Shown here piece by piece: positions 3,115 through 61,894 of a stretch of DNA of 64,000 nt. The first letter of the stretch is position 1, and each line of letters opens with the position of its first letter. The translations under genes were made by a program, and so were the position numbers. A model generated the notes under the pieces. It searched no databases. It was not told the origin of the DNA and saw only the letters and a list, made by a program, of their open reading frames with translations. Origin of the DNA: an uncultured Solirubrobacterales bacterium (GTDB lineage Bacteria > Actinomycetota > Thermoleophilia > Solirubrobacterales > JBBDJG01); NCBI GenBank assembly GCA_963774075.1, contig CAVZDP010000001.1, forward strand, positions 108,572 through 172,571, given 5' to 3'.

Positions 3115-10733
<7,619 letters not shown>

Positions 10734-12826: not shown

Positions 12827-13297
12827 ATGCCTCGCCGAGGAGGGATAACACCGCGTCCGCTCGAGCCGGACCACGTGCACAACAGCCGGCTCGTCCAGCA
12901 GGTGATCAACAAGGTGATGCAGGGCGGCAAGAAGTCCGTGGCCGAGAAGATCACCTACGACGCGCTCGACATTCTCGCGAGGAAGACGGGCAAGGACCCG
13001 ATCGAGGCGCTCGAGCACTCGATCAAAGTCCTCACTCCGGTGCTCGAGGTGCGGTCACGCAGGGTCGGAGGTGCCACCTACCAGGTACCGGTCGAGGTGC
13101 CCGCGAGGCGCGCTCGCACGCTCGCGGTGCGCTGGCTCGTCGAGTACGCCCGCAACCGGCGCGAGAAGTCGATGTCCGAGCGGCTCGCAAACGAGCTCGC
13201 CGACGCGTCCGAGCAGCAGGGCGACGCCTACAAGCGCAAGGACGACATCTACCGCATGGCGCAGGCCAACAAGGCCTTCGCCCACTACCGCTGGTAG
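12827..13297 (+). CDS. rpsG: 30S ribosomal protein S7
   Basis: 156 aa, ..[20 protein letters not shown]..; follows rpsL. Confidence 0.97.
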
Positions 13298-13450
13298 CGC
13301 CCGACCCCGGTCGCTATCTCGATCCGGGCATAACCACCCCGTCGGGCGCGCGAGGCGCGCGTCGATCCGCACGAGACTCCGCACGTAACGCTAGGCGATC
13401 GATTTAGGCGCCCTCGACCGGCGGCACTGCCGGCGCCGGCCCAACAGACT

Positions 13451-13530
13451 CGGAATACCAGGCCGGCTCCGCCGGGCACCTCAGTCACGTGAGCCGGCTG
13501 CGCCCCCTTCGGGGGCTACGCCGTCTCTCG
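13451..13530 (-). repeat. Single copy of the 81-nt GTAG-hairpin element (minus orientation)
   Basis: The reverse complement reads CGAGAGA-CGGC-GTAG-CCCCC-gaa-GGGGGC-GCA-GCCG-GCTCACGTGACTGAGGTGC-CCGGC-gga-GCCGG-CCTGGTATTCCG. This is colinear with the units at 47200-47472. Confidence 0.85.
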
Positions 13531-14801
13531 TCATAACCAGATCAGCGGCCAGCGTCTCGAGATCGCGCCCGTGCGGCTCGATCGAAACCAAGGCGAAGCC
13601 GAGCGCGACCAGCACTGAGAAACCGGCCAGGAACAGGAACGCCGGCTCCTGCGCCGCGAGGGTGGCCTCCGGATCCACGAGGTCGCCCGTTCCGGCGATC
13701 AGTGCGACTCCGAGTGGTCCCACGATCCGCCCCACCCCGCTGACGGCCCACGCCAGACCCATCCCGTGTGTCCGCAGGCGCGTCGGAAACACCTCCGGCG
13801 TGTAGGGGGCGAGGTTCGCGAAGCCGCCGTCAACGAAGAAGGCCGCGGCCACGAGCCACACGAGGAAGAGGGGGATGCCGGCGACCTTTGAGGTGCCGCT
13901 GAACGCGGCGGCGGCCAGGAGCGGTGGCGCTCCAAGGCCCATGACGAGCCCGCAGGTGCGGCGGCCCAGGCGCTGGGGTGCGAACGAGAAGAAGAGGCGG
14001 CCACCGAAGGAGCCGAGCGTCACGAAGACGAACAGGAGCGCGGCCTCGTCGGTGTCGATGTCGAGAATCCGCTCGAGGATCGCTGTATCGGCTGCCCTGT
14101 CCCTCGGGACTGGGAGGCGCTTCGAGCGAGAGCTCCTCTTCGTCGCGCTCGAGGAGCCACGCGATCACGCTGCGAGCCTCCTCCAGGCGGCCCTGATCCG
14201 CCAGCCAGCGAGGCGATTCCGGCACGTAGCGCCAAACGAAGATCGCGAGCAGCGCCGGCAGCACTCCGACCCCGAAAAGCGGCCGCCAGCCGATCGCCGG
14301 GATCAACACGGCGGCAGCGATGGCGGCCGCCATGATCCCGATCGGCACCATGGCCGTGGTGACGAAGCCCGCGACCTGTGTGCGCAGGCGCGTGGGAGTG
14401 AACTCGAGCGTGAGAGGCAGCGCTATCACAGCAACGCCCGCCACGCCGGCGCCGACGACGAAGCGAAGGGCGGCCAGGTACCACCAGCCATTGTCGGGCG
14501 CGGCGGCGAGGGCGCCCGTCGCGAGGGAGAAGGTGAGGATGCCGGCGATCAGTGGCCGTCTGCGGCCGAGGTGGTCTCCCGCGCGTCCCCACGCGACGCT
14601 GCCGAAGATCGCGCCGACGCCGGCGCTCAGGAGCACGATCGCGGTCTCGCCGAAGGTCAGGTCCCACTCGTCGGCGATCTCCGGCACCACGAAAGCGATC
14701 AGGAAGAAATCGAACAGGTGCAGGACCGCGCCCACCATCACCGCGATCGCGAGCAGGTAGAAGCGGCGACTCAGCGGCGCTGCGTCGAGCGCCTCGAGCA
14801 T
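13481..14801 (-). pseudogene. MFS transporter, disrupted (frame switch and missing TM7)
   Basis: The N-half (14801 down to ~14100) has 6 TMs and motif A (GRAGDHLGRRR). The C-half (from ~14090 down to 13481) is in another frame and starts at TM8 (..AALLFVFVTLGSFGGRLFFSFAPQRLGRR..). No TM7 is found in any frame, and the last 15 codons plus the stop lie inside the repeat element. Confidence 0.7.
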
Positions 14802-23791: not shown

Positions 23792-24205
23792 ATGCTGATG
23801 CCTAAGCGGGTAAAGCACCGCAAGCAGCATCGGGGCCGCAGAGCCGGCTACTCGAAGGGCGGCACGACCGTCCAGTTCGGCGAGTACGGCCTGAAGGCCC
23901 TCGACGCCGGCTGGATCACGAACCGCCAGATCGAGGCCGCGCGTGTCGCGATGACGCGAAAGATCAAGCGTGGGGGAAAGGTCTGGATCAACATCTTTCC
24001 CGACAAGCCGGTGACGAAGAAGCCGGCCGAAACGCGCATGGGCTCGGGCAAGGGATCACCCGAGTCCTGGGTGGCGGTCGTGAAGCCCGGGCGCGTGATG
24101 TTCGAGCTCGCCGGTGTGCCCGAGCAGCTGGCCCGCGAGGCGATGCGCCTGGCCGGCCACAAGTTGCCTATCCGGACCAAGATCGTGCTGCGCGAGGAAC
24201 AGTAA
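23792..24205 (+). CDS. rplP: 50S ribosomal protein L16
   Basis: 137 aa, [17 protein letters not shown].....FGEYGL.A. Confidence 0.97.
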
Positions 24206-24266
24206 TGGCCGCTTCACGGACAGCTAAAGGCACGAGAGTCGGCCTCGAGGCCGACTACCGGAACAG

Positions 24267-24494: not shown

Positions 24495-25202
24495 ATGCAG
24501 GACGAAGAGAAGCAAGAGCAGCCCGAAGAGCAGCAGCCCGCAGCCGACGAGGCCGCGCCGGAAGCCCCGGCGGCGGAGGAGGCTGCGGTGGAACAGCCCG
24601 CCGGCGAAGAGCCCGCGGCAGAGGAGTCTGCGGCGGAAGAGCCCGCGGCAGAGGAGCCTGCGGCAGAGGAGCCTGCGGCAGAGGAGCCTGCGGCAGAGGC
24701 TCCCGCCAAGCCCCCCGCTGCAGCTCCCGCCGAGGACGAGGCGGAGCCGCTCACGCCCAAGCAGCAGCGCAAGCTCGCCCGGTCCCGCGCGAATGGAACC
24801 GCTGCGCCGACGCGCTCGGCGGACGAGCGCGCCCGCGAGCGCTCCGAGCGGCGCACCTCCAAGGCCGCGGGACGCACCCGCTGGCGGCGCAAGCAACGCG
24901 AGCGCAGCCACGCCGAGCCGTCCCAGCCTCGTCCACAGAAGGAGCCTGCGGCCAAGGGCGCGCCCAAGGTCAGGCGCGGAGTGGTCGTCTCCAGCAAGCC
25001 CGACAAAACCATCACGGTCCGGACCGACGCCGTTCGCCCGCATCCGCGCTACGGCAAGGTCATCCGAAACACCAACACGCTTCATGCCCACGACGAGAAG
25101 AACCAGGCAAACGAGGGCGACGTGGTGCGGGTCGTCGAGACGCGGCCGCTCTCACGTACCAAGCGCTGGCTGCTGCTCGAGATCGTGGAGAGAGCCCGGT
25201 GA
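24495..25202 (+). CDS. rpsQ: 30S ribosomal protein S17 with ~150-aa N-terminal extension (acidic PAAEE repeats then basic segment)
   Basis: The C-terminal ~85 aa are canonical S17 (..[19 protein letters not shown]...HP.YGK.I....TLHAHDE.N.A.EGD.V...ETRPLS.TKRW.L). One uninterrupted 235-aa ORF, ATG after GGAGAG. Confidence 0.9.
24600..24704 (+). repeat. Seven tandem 15-bp coding repeats (GCGGCAGAGGAGCCT-like) inside rpsQ
   Basis: Units start at 24600, 24615, 24630, 24645, 24660, 24675 and 24690. Three central units are identical. Each encodes an (A/P)AEE(P/S) pentapeptide. Confidence 0.85.
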
Positions 25203-25905: not shown

Positions 25906-26708
25906 TGGCAGCGCGTCTCAAGGACAGGTATCAGAAGGAAATACGGCCGCAGCTGTTCGAGCGGTTCCGCTACAAGAGCCCGATGCAGATACCGCGGGTG
26001 GAGAAGATCACGCTCAACATGGGTGTGGGAGAGGCAAAGCTAAATACCGCGATGCTCGATGCCGCGAGCGAGCAGCTCGCCACGATCTCGGGCCAGCGCC
26101 CGCAGGTGCGCCGGGCGCGCAAGTCGATCGCCAACTTCAAGCTGCGCGAGGGCATGCCGGTCGGCGTGAGGGTGACGCTGCGAGGAGAGCGGATGTACGA
26201 GATGCTCGATCGCCTCCAGTCGATCGCCATCCCGCGGATTCGCGACTTTCGCGGCCTCAGCCCACGCTCCTTCGACGGGCGCGGCAACTACTCGCTCGGC
26301 ATTCGCGAGCAAATCATCTTCCCGGAGGTCGACTACGACTCGATCGACCAGGTGCGAGGCCTCGACGTCGCGATCACAACGTCCGCCAAGACCGACGAGG
26401 AGGCCTTCGAGCTGCTGCAATTGCTCGGCATGCCCTTCCGGGCCGAGGGATCGGAGCGCCGCGCCGGCACCGCGACGGAGGAGCCTGAGGCCGAGGATAC
26501 TGAGGAGCCGCCCGCAGCCGAGGAGCCCGTGGTGGAGGAGCCGCCGGCCGAGGAGCCCACCGCCGAAGAGCCGCCGGCAGAAGAGCCGCCGGCAGAAGAG
26601 CAGCCGGCCGAAGAGCCAGCCGCCGAGGCAGCAGACGAGAAGCCAGCGGCCGAGGCCGATTCCACACCAGACGAAACCGAAGAGGAAGGACAGGAGGAGC
26701 AGAGCTGA
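25905..26708 (+). CDS. rplE: 50S ribosomal protein L5 with ~85-aa acidic C-terminal extension
   Basis: ATG at 25905 overlaps the rplX stop (GTG at 25902 is an alternative). Canonical L5 runs to ~aa 180 (..[23 protein letters not shown]..). The tail is [42 protein letters not shown]... Confidence 0.94.
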
Positions 26709-32739: not shown

Positions 32740-32853
32740 GTGAAGGTCAGAGCATCGGTGAAGCCAATGTGTGAGAAGTGCAAGGTGATCCGCCGCCGCG
32801 GATCCGTGCTCGTGATCTGCAAGAACCCCCGCCACAAGCAGAGGCAGGGCTGA
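32740..32853 (+). CDS. rpmJ: 50S ribosomal protein L36
   Basis: Below the ORF-track size cutoff. Own translation from GTG 32740: (M)[36 protein letters not shown]. Confidence 0.95.
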
Positions 32854-32915
32854 ATATTGGGCAGCTTCGCTGACACCTACGGTCCAGAACGCCGGCCTAT
32901 GGCCGTCGCCTGAAC

Positions 32916-33299
32916 ATGGCTCGTATCGCCGGAGTAAACATCCCACTCAACAAGCGAGTAGAGGTCGGCCTCACCTACGTGTACGGGCTCGGCCCCTCTC
33001 AGGCCAGGAAGCTCCTCGAGAAGACCAAGGTCGACCCGAACACCTACGTGAAGGACCTCACCGAGGACGAGGTCGTGCGTCTGCGCGAGGCGATCGACGA
33101 AGACCTGATGGTCGAGGGCGATCTGCGCCGGGAACGCTCTCAGGACGTCAAGCGCCTGACCGAAATTGGCGCCTACCGCGGTATGCGCCATCGTCGCGGC
33201 CTGCCGGTGCGCGGCCAGCGGACGAAGACGAACGCTCGCGGGCGCAAGGGTCCGCGGCGGGGCCAGGTCGCGCAGAAGAAGAGGGTCGGTAAGCACTAA
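32916..33299 (+). CDS. rpsM: 30S ribosomal protein S13
   Basis: 127 aa, [23 protein letters not shown]. Confidence 0.97.
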
Positions 33300-35456: not shown

Positions 35457-35810
35457 ATGCGCCACCGCAAGAAGCGAAACAAGCTCTCGCGCGACAGCGG
35501 ACACCGCAAGGCGCTCTTCATGAACCTCTGCACGGAGATCGTTCAGCACGAGCGCGTGAAGACGACTGAGGCGAAGGCGAAGGCCGTCAAGCCGGAAGTC
35601 GAGCGCCTGATCACGCTCGCCAAGCGGGGCGACCTGCATGCGCGACGGCAGGCGCTCGCCGCGCTGAACCAGAACAAGTTCACGGTCCACAAGCTGTTCG
35701 AGGAGATTGCGCCGCGCTATGCGGAGCGCCCCGGCGGCTACACGCGCATCCTGAAGCTCGGGCCTCGGCGCTCCGACGCGACCGAGATGGTCTTCATCGA
35801 GCTAGTGTGA
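35457..35810 (+). CDS. rplQ: 50S ribosomal protein L17
   Basis: ATG at 35457 gives MRHRKKRNKLSRDSGHRKAL.. (canonical L17 N-terminus). The track start at 35439 is an alternative. Confidence 0.95.
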   Translation: MRHRKKRNKLSRDSGHRKALFMNLCTEIVQHERVKTTEAKAKAVKPEVERLITLAKRGDLHARRQALAALNQNKFTVHKLFEEIAPRYAERPGGYTRILKLGPRRSDATEMVFIELV

Positions 35811-35811
35811 C

Positions 35812-36054
35812 GAGAGGCCGCGTAGGCGCCGAAGGCGCCGCAGCGGACTCACGAGACTTTAGGTGTCCGGCGAAGCCGGCTAGATATTCCTTGAGAGGCC
35901 GCGTAGGCGCCGAAGGCGCCGCAGCGGACTCACGAGACTTTAGGTGTCCGGCGAAGCCGGCTAGATATTCCTTGAGAGGCCGCGTAGGCGCCGAAGGCGC
36001 CGCAGCGGACTCACGAGACTTTAGGTGTCCGGCGAAGCCGGCTAGATATTCCTC
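35812..36054 (+). repeat. Array of three head-to-tail 81-bp GTAG-hairpin units
   Basis: Units start at 35812, 35893 and 35974 and are essentially identical, with no spacers. The array sits between the rplQ stop (35810) and the truA start (36076). Confidence 0.95.
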
Positions 36055-36075
36055 GTTGCCCGCCAAGCCATCGGG

Positions 36076-36855
36076 GTGACGGCCTGCAAGCTCATCCTTG
36101 AATACGACGGGCGTGCGTTCGCCGGCTGGGCGGCGCAGCCGGATCTGCGGACGGTGGAGGGCGAGTTGAGCAGGGCGCTCGCCACCGCTCTCGGGAGCGA
36201 GGTGCGGCTGTCGGTCGCCGGACGTACCGACGCCGGCGTGCATGCCTGGGGCCAGGTGGCGAGTTTCGCTCTCCCGCCGAACGCACCGGGGCCGCCGCGG
36301 CTCGTTGCCTCGCTGAACGGGTTGCTGCCGCACGACGTGGCGGCGGTGAGAGCCGAGACCGTGCCGGAGGGATTCGACGCTCGCACGGACGCGCTCTCGC
36401 GCACGTACTGCTACCGCCTGCTCGCCCGCAGCGCTCCAAGCCCCTTCGAGGCCGGCCGGGCGCTCTGGGTGCAATCGCCGGTGGAGGAGGACGTTCTGTC
36501 GCAGTGCGCCGCGGCCCTCGTCGGCAAGCACGACTTCACGGCCTTCACGCCCACCGACACCGATCACGTGCGCTTCGAGCGCGACGTGATGATGACGGAG
36601 TGGCGGCGTACCGGAGACATCTTGGAGTTCTGGATCGAAGCCGACACGTTCATGCGGCACATGGTCAGGAGTCTCGTGGGGACCATGCTCGCTGCGGCTT
36701 CGGGCCGCCTCTCCGTCAGCGACTTCACCCGGCTTCTGGAGGGCGCGCCGCGCAGCGCCGCCGGCCAGACGGCGTCGCCGCATGGCCTCTATCTCGCGTC
36801 GGTCCGCTACCGACCGCCGTCAGACTGGATGCGAAGCCCGCGACTAACATCTTGA
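36076..36855 (+). CDS. truA: tRNA pseudouridine(38-40) synthase TruA
   Basis: GTG start; ..ILEYDGRAFAGWA.QP...TVEGEL..AL......V.L.VAGRTDAGVHA.GQV.. Confidence 0.93.
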   Translation: MTACKLILEYDGRAFAGWAAQPDLRTVEGELSRALATALGSEVRLSVAGRTDAGVHAWGQVASFALPPNAPGPPRLVASLNGLLPHDVAAVRAETVPEGFDARTDALSRTYCYRLLARSAPSPFEAGRALWVQSPVEEDVLSQCAAALVGKHDFTAFTPTDTDHVRFERDVMMTEWRRTGDILEFWIEADTFMRHMVRSLVGTMLAAASGRLSVSDFTRLLEGAPRSAAGQTASPHGLYLASVRYRPPSDWMRSPRLTS

Positions 36856-40280: not shown

Positions 40281-40289
40281 CGGGTTTAC

Positions 40290-40321
40290 ATCGAGCCGGC
40301 TTCGCCGGACACCTAAAGTCC
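40290..40321 (-). repeat. Partial copy (3' half) of the 81-nt element, minus orientation
   Basis: ATCGAGCCGGCTTCGCCGGACACCTAAAGTCC is the reverse complement of GGACTTTAGGTGTCCGGCGAAGCCGGCTCGAT (compare 61855-61886). It overlaps the stop codon of the 40313..42118 gene. Confidence 0.75.
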
Positions 40322-42118
40322 AGTCTCGTCACCTTCGCCACGGCCGCCGGAGTAGCCGGCGATCGTCGTCGCGATCCGATCCTGGACCGACCGCGCCCGT
40401 GCCACGTTGACGCCGTTCATCAGCAGGGCGAACGCGATCCGCTCGCGGTCGCGCGACCAGCAGTAGCCGGCGAGCGCGCTGACGCCGATCAGCGTGCCCG
40501 TCTTCCCCCGGCAGCGACCGTCCGCGGTGGTGCCGCGCATGCGCTTGCGAAGCGTCCCACTCTTGCCGGCGAGGGGGAGAGAGCGGTAGAAGGAGCGGAA
40601 CCACGGTTTCGCCGGCGCCTCCGTCAACAGGCGTCCAACGGCCGCCGGCGAGACGACGTTGCCGCGCGAGAGCCCCGACCCGTCGAGCACCGTGGCGCCC
40701 GCACCCATGTCGTCCTGGAAGCGACGAACGACCGCCGCGCCGGAGAGAGTCGAGCCGCGCCCCGAGAAGCGGGCGCCCAGGCCCTTGAGAAGGATCTCGG
40801 CGAAATAGTTGTCTGACACCTGGTTCGTGTGGCGTACGAGCCCCGCCATTTCAGGCGACTCGACGGCGGCGAGCTCCGACGCCGTCTCTGGCGCGCGCCC
40901 GGTGCGAGCTCCGTGGGGCACCTCGACGCCGCGAGCGCGAAGCGCGGCTCGGAAGCGGTCCGCCACGAACCTGGGCGGATCGGCCTGAAAGCCGCGCCCG
41001 TATCCGAGCGCGCTGCCGTGCCCGAAGGCAAGCGCGGAGAGCGGCCCGACGTACGACGAGACTCTGAAGCCGCCGGCCGGCAGGCCGCGCCGGCTGTCGA
41101 AGAACGTCTCGTCTCCGTACACGCGGCCGGTCACGCTGCGCACTCCGGCGGCACGCACCTCCGATGCCAGCCTCGTCAGGCCGGTGCGCCCGAAGGAGGG
41201 GTCCCCGAACCCCTGCACGTAGAGGTCGCCGGCAAGCGTGCCGCTCTCGGTGAGTAGCCCGTCGGTACTCGCCACAGTTTCGACCCGAAATTCGGCCCCC
41301 ATGCGTTCGAGGGCCGTGGCGGTGGTGAAGAGCTTCTGCACGGACGCCGGGGTGCGCCTGGTCTTGGAGCGAAGCGAAAAGAGCCTCTTGCCGCTCTCGG
41401 CTTCGGCCACCCAAGCGCCCGAGCCGGGCCCCGCCGCCCGCATCTGCGCCAGCAGCCGAGCGGCCAGCCGTTGCTCCGGGGGCGTCGCGGCCGAGGCCGG
41501 CTCTGAGGCGCCGAGTAGGCCCGCGAGCGCCGCGGTAAGGAGCAGTAAGGCGATCATCCCTCTCTTCAACGCGGCGACGGCCGCCTGGGTGCGGTTTGCA
41601 ACCCCAAGCCGCTCGAGCACGCTCGAGACGTGAGAGCGCGCGGTTCGTGGGGAGATGCCGAGGCGACGAGCGATCTCGGCATTGTCCAGGCCGTCGGCGA
41701 GCAGGCGCAGCACCTGGCGCTGGCGCGGGGTCAGCTCGACCGGGTCGCCCACCGGTCCGGCGGCGGCCCGGCGAATGGCGAGCGAGAGCTCTCCGAGCCC
41801 CGCGTTCTTGCGCAGGACGCCGCGGGCTCCGACAGCGGTGGCATTGGCGACGTCCTCGGGCCGCACCACCTCCATGAAGACGATCACCGGCGGGCCGAGC
41901 GAGCAGAACGCATCGAGCTCCGACGGAAGCGGCGACTCGACGAACAGCATGTCGACGTCGCTTGCTGCTGCGGCCATTGCCGACCCCTCGAGGACGTACG
42001 CGTCGGCTCCCCGGCTCGCCAGCAGGTCCGCGAGCGCGCGAACGTAGAGCTCGTGCCGCCCCCAGACGCCGGCAACGAGGCCTCCCCACCCAATCTGGGT
42101 GGGATCTCGGGATGACAC
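40313..42118 (-). CDS. Fusion protein: degenerate receiver + LuxR/GerE HTH + TM/signal segment + D-Ala-D-Ala carboxypeptidase/endopeptidase (PBP4/DacB, peptidase S13)
   Basis: A single 601-aa ORF from GTG 42118. aa ~125-185 = LTPRQRQVLRLLADGLDNAEIARRLGISPRTARSHVSSVLERLGVANRTQAAVAA. aa 188-211 = MIALLLLTAALAGLLGASEPASAA. PBP motifs follow: SVQK (SxxK), SDN, KTGT. There is no stop between the regulator and PBP parts. Confidence 0.8.
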   Translation of the reverse strand: MSSRDPTQIGWGGLVAGVWGRHELYVRALADLLASRGADAYVLEGSAMAAAASDVDMLFVESPLPSELDAFCSLGPPVIVFMEVVRPEDVANATAVGARGVLRKNAGLGELSLAIRRAAAGPVGDPVELTPRQRQVLRLLADGLDNAEIARRLGISPRTARSHVSSVLERLGVANRTQAAVAALKRGMIALLLLTAALAGLLGASEPASAATPPEQRLAARLLAQMRAAGPGSGAWVAEAESGKRLFSLRSKTRRTPASVQKLFTTATALERMGAEFRVETVASTDGLLTESGTLAGDLYVQGFGDPSFGRTGLTRLASEVRAAGVRSVTGRVYGDETFFDSRRGLPAGGFRVSSYVGPLSALAFGHGSALGYGRGFQADPPRFVADRFRAALRARGVEVPHGARTGRAPETASELAAVESPEMAGLVRHTNQVSDNYFAEILLKGLGARFSGRGSTLSGAAVVRRFQDDMGAGATVLDGSGLSRGNVVSPAAVGRLLTEAPAKPWFRSFYRSLPLAGKSGTLRKRMRGTTADGRCRGKTGTLIGVSALAGYCWSRDRERIAFALLMNGVNVARARSVQDRIATTIAGYSGGRGEGDETGL

Positions 42119-47051: not shown

Positions 47052-47119
47052 CCTCCCTTCGGACCCCAGGGGCTCTGCGATAATCCGGCCCGTCTGACCG
47101 GCTCTGCCGGGCTATTCGT

Positions 47120-47193
47120 CGGGGCGTGGCGCAGTCTGGTAGCGCGCACCGTTCGGGTCGGTGAGGTCCCCGGTTCAAATCCGGGCGCCCCGA
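47120..47193 (+). tRNA. tRNA-Pro (anticodon CGG)
   Basis: Manual cloverleaf: acceptor CGGGGCG/CGCCCCG, D arm GCGC-AGTCTGGTA-GCGC, anticodon arm CACCG-TTCGGGT-CGGTG, variable AGGTC, T arm CCCGG-TTCAAAT-CCGGG, discriminator A. CCA is not encoded. Confidence 0.93.
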
Positions 47194-47199
47194 TATATG

Positions 47200-47472
47200 T
47201 CAGAGGCGGCGTAGCCGGCAGAGCCGGCGCAGCCGACTCACATGACTGAGGTGCCCGGCGTCAGCCGGCTGGATATTCAGTCAGAGGCGGCGTAGCCGGC
47301 AGAGCCGGCGCAGCCGACTCACATGACTGAGGTGCCCGGCGTCAGCCGGCTGGATATTCAGTCAGAGGCGGCGTAGCCGGCAGAGCCGGCGCAGCCGACT
47401 CACATGACTGAGGTGCCCGGCGTCAGCCGGCTGGATATTCAGTCAGAGGCGGCGTAGCTGGCTAGATATTCG
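47200..47472 (+). repeat. Array of three full 81-bp GTAG-hairpin units plus one internally deleted unit
   Basis: Units start at 47200, 47281 and 47362. The fourth, at 47443, keeps the first 16 nt fused to the tail TGGCTAGATATTCGG. The array starts 7 nt after tRNA-Pro. Confidence 0.95.
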
Positions 47473-47486
47473 GACAGGCGGCCGCC

Positions 47487-61636: not shown

Positions 61637-61816
61637 ATGGTCGAAGCGACCGTCCAGAGGTACATATGCACGTCCTGCGGGTTCATCTACGACCCGGCCG
61701 AGGGCGACCCCGACGGCGGCATCCCGCCTGGCACGGCGTTCGAGGAGATCCCCGCCGACTGGTTCTGCCCGGTCTGCGGCGCGCGCAAGAGGGATTTTGA
61801 GGTATATGAGGACTAG
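61637..61816 (+). CDS. Rubredoxin
   Basis: 59 aa, below the track cutoff. Own translation: [59 protein letters not shown] (CxxC...CPxCG). Confidence 0.93.
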
Positions 61817-61894
61817 AGACCGCGTAGCCGCCGAAGGCGGCGCAGCGGGCTCACAGGACTTTAGGTGTCCGGCGAAGCCGGCTCGATATTCCGC
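61815..61894 (+). repeat. Single copy of the 81-nt GTAG-hairpin element
   Basis: AGAGA-CCGC-GTAG-CCGCC-gaa-GGCGGC-GCA-GCGG-GCTCACAGGACTTTAGGTGT-CCGGC-gaa-GCCGG-CTCGATATTCCG. It begins inside the rubredoxin TAG. Confidence 0.9.

Follow-up and report, generated by a model that had tools for sequence, protein, structure and literature searches.

REPs are palindromes of 20–50 nt that are preceded by GTAG and processed as single strands by TnpA-REP, and they often give TAG stops to adjoining ORFs or sit inside ORFs (PMC8266576, PMC3733652). They are also thought to act as cis RNA modules at gene ends (PMC3733652), and a REP-like repeat that makes a gene end is an already known phenomenon. IS200/IS605 elements move as folded single strands that are recognised at subterminal hairpins (PMC6006769). 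Our literature search on repeats in Solirubrobacter, Conexibacter or Thermoleophilia returned nothing relevant, and the literature searched held no link of REP-type repeats or RAYT genes to Thermoleophilia. Here we describe a family of structured repeats from an uncultured Solirubrobacterales bacterium that appears to be undescribed and has an architecture unlike that of canonical REPs, and we define its unit through one copy whose insertion near the 3′ end of an MFS transporter gene can be read to the base.

The window, that is, the whole 64-kb stretch of DNA that was analysed, has a G+C content of 67.6% and carries on its plus strand rpoB, rpoC, rpsL, rpsG, fusA and tuf, together with the S10, spc and alpha ribosomal-protein operons. 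The repeat family occupies seven loci in it, three on the plus and four on the minus strand, of which copies F and G are newly found (Table 1). The GACTGAGGTGC variant is common to copies D and B, and GACTTTAGGTGT to copies A and C. Array B starts 2 nt after tRNA-Pro(CGG) (47119-47194); its fourth unit, at 47444-47475 on the plus strand, bears an internal deletion that fuses CAGAGGCGGCGTAGC to TGGCTAGATATTCGG. The window also contains 15-nt (5-codon) tandem repeats at 24513-24729, 26472-26658 and 2390-2476, which encode Pro/Ala/Glu-rich low-complexity stretches; such repeats make up part of the N-terminal region of ORF 24495-25202.

Table 1 Features of the repeat family and of the interrupted MFS gene in the window
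Feature	Position	Strand	Description	Basis
Copy D	13452..13534	-	ATGACGA, P1, linker ACGTGACTGAGGTGC, P2, trailer CCTGGTATTCC	R1 match
P1 of copy D	13491..13527	-	bipartite hairpin including the GTAG tag	minimum-free-energy fold and covariation
P2 of copy D	13463..13475	-	hairpin CCGGC-GGA-GCCGG, GNA loop	covarying variants in other copies
Element TGA, current end of MFS reading frame	13481..13483	-	inside GACTGAGGTG	
Native MFS 3′ end, displaced	13404..13451	-	15 codons ESVGPAPAVPPVEGA and TAA	
MFS pseudogene body	13535..14801	-	95-nt out-of-frame deletion at about 14079/14080, TM7 lost	
Array A	35807..36054	+	three identical 81-nt units, rplQ stop to truA start	
Array B	47196..47475	+	three identical 81-nt units and an internally deleted fourth, right after tRNA-Pro	
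Copy C	61809..61894	+	abuts rubredoxin stop codon; TAG within element leader	
Copy E, degenerate	40283..40369	-	leader-like GTGACGAGA, core, P2 and trailer kept	39.3 bits
Copy F, short form	32849..32916	-	rpmJ stop to rpsM start, antisense	32.3 bits, E = 6e-7
Copy G, short form, weak	24196..24264	-	between rplP and rpmC, antisense	17.6 bits, E = 0.005

Two minus-strand ORFs lie between rpsG (12827-13297) and fusA, namely the MFS transporter gene and a 224-aa unknown. A preliminary description had placed at the 3′ end of the MFS gene a minus-strand element copy with a GCCCCC-gaa-GGGGGC stem. This copy, termed copy D, is indeed present: R1, a covariance model built from 26 copies of the repeat, matches it with 88.4 bits (E = 6.2e-22; match span 13450-13534, minus strand), and over a 59-nt stretch it shares 85% complementarity with the units at 47202-47422. 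The location thus stood, but the extent first given, 13451-13530, did not, the correct one being the 83 nt of Table 1. We set these boundaries by restoration of the native MFS ORF. When the 83 nt were deleted in silico, ...LAADLV was rejoined in frame to ESVGPAPAVPPVEGA, and the resulting translation ended in ...LAADLVESVGPAPAVPPVEGA (...DLVESVGPAPAVPPVEGA, or ...ETLAADLVESVGPAPAVPPVEGA over a longer stretch), a tail that agrees with the ...PPVEGA* of the orthologues and matches those of P0001 (...DLVEEAGARAPVAPPVEGA*), L086 and L001. The native C terminus, suspected earlier of having been replaced by the element, is therefore intact and in frame 83 nt downstream, where the minus strand from 13451 down to 13404 reads GAG TCT GTT GGG CCG GCG CCG GCA GTG CCG CCG GTC GAG GGC GCC TAA. 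The same segment (13401-13450) had tentatively been taken for a degenerate plus-strand partial copy serving rpsG; it has no R1 match on the plus strand and is the displaced MFS end.

Copy D is a clean insertion of exactly 83 nt, located between a Val and a Glu codon, 15 codons 5′ of the natural MFS stop. The junctions GTT/ATGAC and ATTCC/GAGTCT (the slash marks the boundary) are unambiguous and make any alternative placement impossible. We found no target-site duplication at these junctions and no terminal inverted repeats at the ends of copy D, and we rejected a classical MITE on both grounds. Because copy D is the one locus at which the insertion site was resolved to the base, no target rule for the element follows from it; many 5′ flanks of family copies seem to carry GATAT or GATAG, which resemble the 3′ tail of the element. 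In its present state the MFS frame runs into copy D and ends inside it at a TGA, as had been noticed, though after 17 element codons and not 15. The C terminus of ORF 13481-14023 (minus strand) accordingly reads ...DLVMTRDGVAPEGGAAGSRD* (...LAADLVMTRDGVAPEGGAAGSRD over a longer stretch), with a pseudo-extension from copy D that ends ...MTRDGVAPEGGAAGSRD.

Comparison with orthologues placed the break at the same point. Protein homology stops at ...ETLAADLV, the insertion boundary, beyond which the orthologues go on EEAG...PPVEGA*, and DNA identity between the window and L001 stops exactly at CTGGT(T/C). The proposed insertion into a gene 3′ end was borne out, as the orthologous proteins and three element-free loci are without the 17 terminal residues: the element copy is absent from L001, L086 and L087 (3 of 3), whose MFS proteins share 77–82% amino-acid identity with that of the window. 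Both L001, from the Solirubrobacterales MAG GCA_038330145.1, and L086, a metagenome contig, have the same rpsL-rpsG / fusA neighbourhood, and on the strength of this common gene arrangement the MFS genes were taken as orthologues; L087 is a 2.4-kb contig with no informative flanks. Exact-protein look-ups gave no record of identical RpsG or L36 proteins from sister strains. An account without any insertion, in which divergence, recombination or an assembly artefact produced the odd C terminus in a dead gene, could appeal to the pseudogene state of the MFS gene and to the variable orthologue tails after ...DLVEEA. Since, however, the 83 nt score highly as a member of the family and the native tail including PPVEGA* follows intact, in frame and immediately 3′ of the element, this account is refuted and we give it a negligible probability.

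The host gene had been called decayed, and the orthologues, with proteins of 465–470 aa, agree: the MFS gene of the window is short of 31 residues (TM7) and changes frame, and both defects are explained by a single 95-nt deletion flanked by CCT microhomology. This deletion, and not the element alone, makes the MFS gene a pseudogene.

Two further structures were seen at the orthologous loci. In L001 (7385-7413) the native MFS stop lies inside a hairpin, GGCCCC-gtcgaa-GGGGCC, that encodes the conserved PVEGA* tail, and the conservation of PVEGA* may owe as much to RNA or DNA structure as to the protein. We considered whether the GCCCCC stem of copy D was borrowed from an L001-type terminal MFS hairpin; with the native tail still in place downstream, we abandoned this idea. 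GCA_038330145.1 also contains a different palindromic repeat of ~140 nt (GGCCCTT...AAACGGCG...CAGGCAAGGACGC...CGCCGTTT...AAGGGCC), at L001 7414-7550 and L088 about 4271-4445, which fills the MFS/rpsG and PBP4/ligA gaps, the same two convergent gaps where the window has copies D and E.

Across the family, units are 62–86 nt long and consist, from 5′ to 3′, of leader, P1, linker, P2 and trailer. The leader is ATGACGA or, in another sub-family, (TA)GGGACAACGA. P1 comprises an outer helix GAG-R-NNNN with a conserved purine–purine mismatch at position 4, then GTA, an inner 6-bp stem with a GNA loop, and GCA; in copy D it reads GAG-A-CGGC / GTA / GCCCCC-GAA-GGGGGC / GCA / GCCG-G-CTC. The linker is CTCAC..GACT(TT/G)AGGTG(T/C), P2 is a 5-bp stem with a C-GNA-G loop, and the family trailer reads C..GATATTCC. 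GTAG stands directly 5′ of the 6-bp stem/3-nt loop, its last G overlapping the stem, in 24 of the 26 long-form copies. Short forms have a GNNA or GNA loop in place of the GTA, hairpin and GCA; as the inner hairpin is flanked by the direct repeats GTAGCCG and GCAGCCG, they can arise by simple slippage.

In the 26-copy alignment 99.6% of cells are paired, and seven pairs (54 cells) have changed on both sides. None of 500 shuffled controls was as high as the observed pairing and covariation, and slid controls came nowhere near. In most of the collected copies the search pattern had dictated the P2/3′ half; copies that came from the model only nevertheless have covarying P2 stems, CAGC/GCTG (copy F), CCGT/GCGG (copy G), TCGGC/GCCGA and CCGCC/GGCGG. 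Among 59 distinct P1 hairpins we counted about 17 G.T pairs against a single A.C pair, so the fold belongs to the strand as written and not to its complement. As judged from the aligned sequences, the structure is under selection, on one strand, with a DNA and an RNA fold both fitting the wobble signature. Fold z-scores of the units range from -1.2 to -3.3. An intrinsic terminator was dismissed, as there is no T run after the G+C-rich hairpin: no terminator-like site was found in 13200-13650, where P2 is followed by CTCGATATTCC.

Flanking-gene orientation, called by a crude GC3 frame test, was co-oriented (+,+) at 10 loci, opposite (-,-) at eight, convergent (+,-) at five and divergent (-,+) at five, counts that give no orientation rule relative to host genes. 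The element had been supposed to carry stops, and it does: each of the three sense frames of copy D contains a stop codon, and the co-oriented upstream ORF ends at or inside the element at every one of the 31 callable loci, between -52 and +5 of the GACT anchor; at several loci its stop is the TAG of GTAG. For ORFs that come in from the opposite side, the ends fall at +4 to +67 of that anchor. The stop of the ORF at 40313 likewise falls, as reported before, at the homologous position of its own copy: copy E supplies the TAG (40313-40315, in GACTTTAGGTG) of ORF 40313-42118 (minus strand, 601 aa), which encodes a fusion of a LuxR-type HTH with a PBP4 (peptidase S13) domain. Among the homologues listed, most end near ...YSG, ...YRG or ...FRG, and the window protein has 10 more residues, GRGEGDETGL, of which only the last five are clearly element-derived. 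Neighbouring copies in inverted orientation are rare (L048, L078) and flank ordinary genes; we discarded the idea that these pairs are REPtron-like cassettes, the enclosed genes being those for an ornithine carbamoyltransferase and an ABC permease.

This placement, together with the fold, bears on whether the repeat is instead a structured cis-acting RNA module (a 3′-end protector, a processing site or a terminator without a U tract) that the host keeps at gene ends, with the MFS case an incidental spread. Such a role would suit the strong covariation with tolerated G.U pairs, the GNRA-like tetraloops of the short forms, the conserved G.A mismatch and the GUA/GCA internal loop, as well as the tight tie to ORF ends and the copies within ribosomal-protein operons, and REPs are thought to have a similar role (PMC3733652). 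Sense and antisense placements are, however, about equally frequent, copies F and G included, yet the wobble signature is confined to one strand; there is no terminator-like T run and no Rfam family match, the fold z-scores are modest, and the copy in the pseudogene has no obvious client gene. We regard this RNA-module explanation as unlikely.

Array A raises a different possibility, that of a MIRU-like intercistronic repeat whose units are mini-ORFs overlapping the start and stop codons of their neighbours, so that translational coupling is kept. The array is spanned by a 90-codon ORF (35807-36079, plus strand), with 27 codons for each 81-nt unit, whose GTG overlaps the rplQ TGA (GTGTGA) and whose TGA overlaps the truA GTG (GTGA) (compare PMC12548453); the leader ATGACGA/GTGACGA provides ATGA/GTGA, and the MFS frame enters copy D in the mini-ORF frame. 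Elsewhere the arrangement breaks down. Stop codons close copies B and D in every frame, the unit lengths of 62 and 83 nt are not divisible by three, every compensatory stem change alters the peptide, and many copies are antisense. Start–stop overlap motifs show no excess in trailers (11 observed, 11.1 expected) and only a weak one in leaders (19 observed, 13.8 expected). As a general rule MIRU-like coupling was rejected, since it holds for array A only, and we consider it very unlikely as an explanation of the family.

When one genome per species was scanned with an exact pattern, six true matches were returned beyond the window, all in two Solirubrobacterales MAGs, and a metagenome scan returned 76 contigs, about 68 of which are true family members. 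Roughly one locus in four carries a head-to-tail array; the array periods are 62, 63, 72, 81 and 83 nt. The same locus can differ in copy number, with one unit in L040 and two in L060, and L014 and L029, again the same locus, differ by a single core substitution (GACTTT versus GACTGT); these differences are VNTR-like variation of the family in natural populations. No family copy was found by a pattern scan of viral contigs, and blastn of one unit against plasmids and phages gave no match. In Rfam, tRNA-Pro was the sole match at the gathering threshold, with no repeat family, and a permissive threshold applied to array A gave nothing below E = 0.1.

We hold with moderate confidence that copy D is a unit of a small, non-coding, non-autonomous mobile repeat, REP-like but composite, that lies in the MFS gene; the family as a whole is probably a REP-like non-autonomous mobile element that is moved as a folded single strand. 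Presence/absence and copy-number polymorphism and the head-to-tail arrays of identical units speak for mobility. Because the stems admit G.T but not A.C pairs, in whichever direction the host transcribes, the selected structure would be the fold of one particular single strand, formed while the element is copied. Taken with the one-strand fold, the GTAG tag that precedes the inner hairpin, the C-GNA-G loops, a second hairpin in subterminal position on the 3′ side and the absence of any target duplication suggest that the element is mobilised as folded single-stranded DNA. The HUH/Y1 enzyme responsible would have its gene elsewhere in the genome, and a RAYT/TnpA-REP-like or an IS200/IS605-like protein would be a candidate. 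A tblastn search of 384 kb (the window plus the loci) gave no Y1 transposase match with two queries, RayT and IS608 TnpA, which is a weak test. Against mobilisation of this REP/HUH kind, inverted pairing of the BIME type is missing, and the GNNA tetraloops and G.A mismatches suit RNA equally well. Copies would persist at gene ends because their own stop codons make insertion least harmful there; the MFS host gene may already have been a pseudogene or may have become one, and any effects on mRNA 3′ ends would be possible by-products.

Under a bolder proposal the family would represent a novel class of structured nucleic-acid replicators among deep-branching Actinomycetota, either an RNA that is copied back to DNA or self-processed from arrays, or the substrate of an undescribed single-strand transposition, with the open 81-nt variants co-opted as coupling bridges in ribosomal-protein operons. 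The array transcribed behind tRNA-Pro may exemplify the source of such a self-processed RNA, but we judge the proposal as a whole decidedly improbable.

The MFS locus offers a base-exact 'before and after' of one insertion of the repeat and defines the mobile unit as 83 nt, with no duplication and no inverted ends. The family resembles a REP-type system in Thermoleophilia, and its one-strand covariation signature could guide the search for the mobilising enzyme. There are consequences for annotation as well: in these genomes ORFs often owe their ends to the element, tails such as ...MTRDGVAPEGGAAGSRD or ...DETGL are pseudo-extensions that should not be annotated as protein features, and arrays like A generate spurious 90-aa ORFs.

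Set beside the described systems, the family shares with GTAG REPs and BIMEs (PMC3733652, PMC8266576) a G+C-rich hairpin preceded by GTAG and closed by short loops, sub-families whose stems change in a complementary way and include G.T pairs, one active strand, and a high copy number mostly by ORF 3′ ends, with TAG stops supplied, some copies inside ORFs and tandem reiteration. It departs from REPs in its composite unit, in which an outer helix surrounds the GTAG hairpin and is followed by a conserved linker of 16 nt, then by another hairpin and lastly by an AT-rich tail; in its head-to-tail arrays, where canonical REPs form REP/iREP inverted pairs (BIMEs); and in a hairpin sequence that is highly variable within one genome. 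No RAYT gene was seen in the 384 kb of window and loci with the two queries, and the host belongs to the Thermoleophilia type of actinobacteria, a phylum that goes unmentioned in the running text of PMC3733652.

Like IS200/IS605 ends and PATEs, the units have a hairpin close to either end but neither terminal inverted repeats nor a target duplication (PMC6006769, PMC8266576); their fold, too, is confined to one strand, be it as DNA or as RNA. Unlike them, they have no known tnpA or tnpB partner, no conserved target tetranucleotide that could be demonstrated from one resolved site, and no orientation bias in the window. With MIRUs (PMC12548453) they have in common an actinobacterial host, direct tandem arrays of 40–100-bp units between operon genes, locus-specific unit variants and a variable copy number, and array A adds a bridging ORF with -4 overlaps; compared by description, the family differs from MIRUs in its strong dyad symmetry, in that most units are not open, and in its occurrence in both orientations. 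Finally, the Rickettsia RPE and the enterobacterial RU/ERIC are likewise short palindromic repeats in coding regions that add residues or gene ends (PMC3733652, PMC2759123), but whereas RPEs insert in frame and leave the protein whole, the stops of the element truncate the reading frame here and the gene is a pseudogene.
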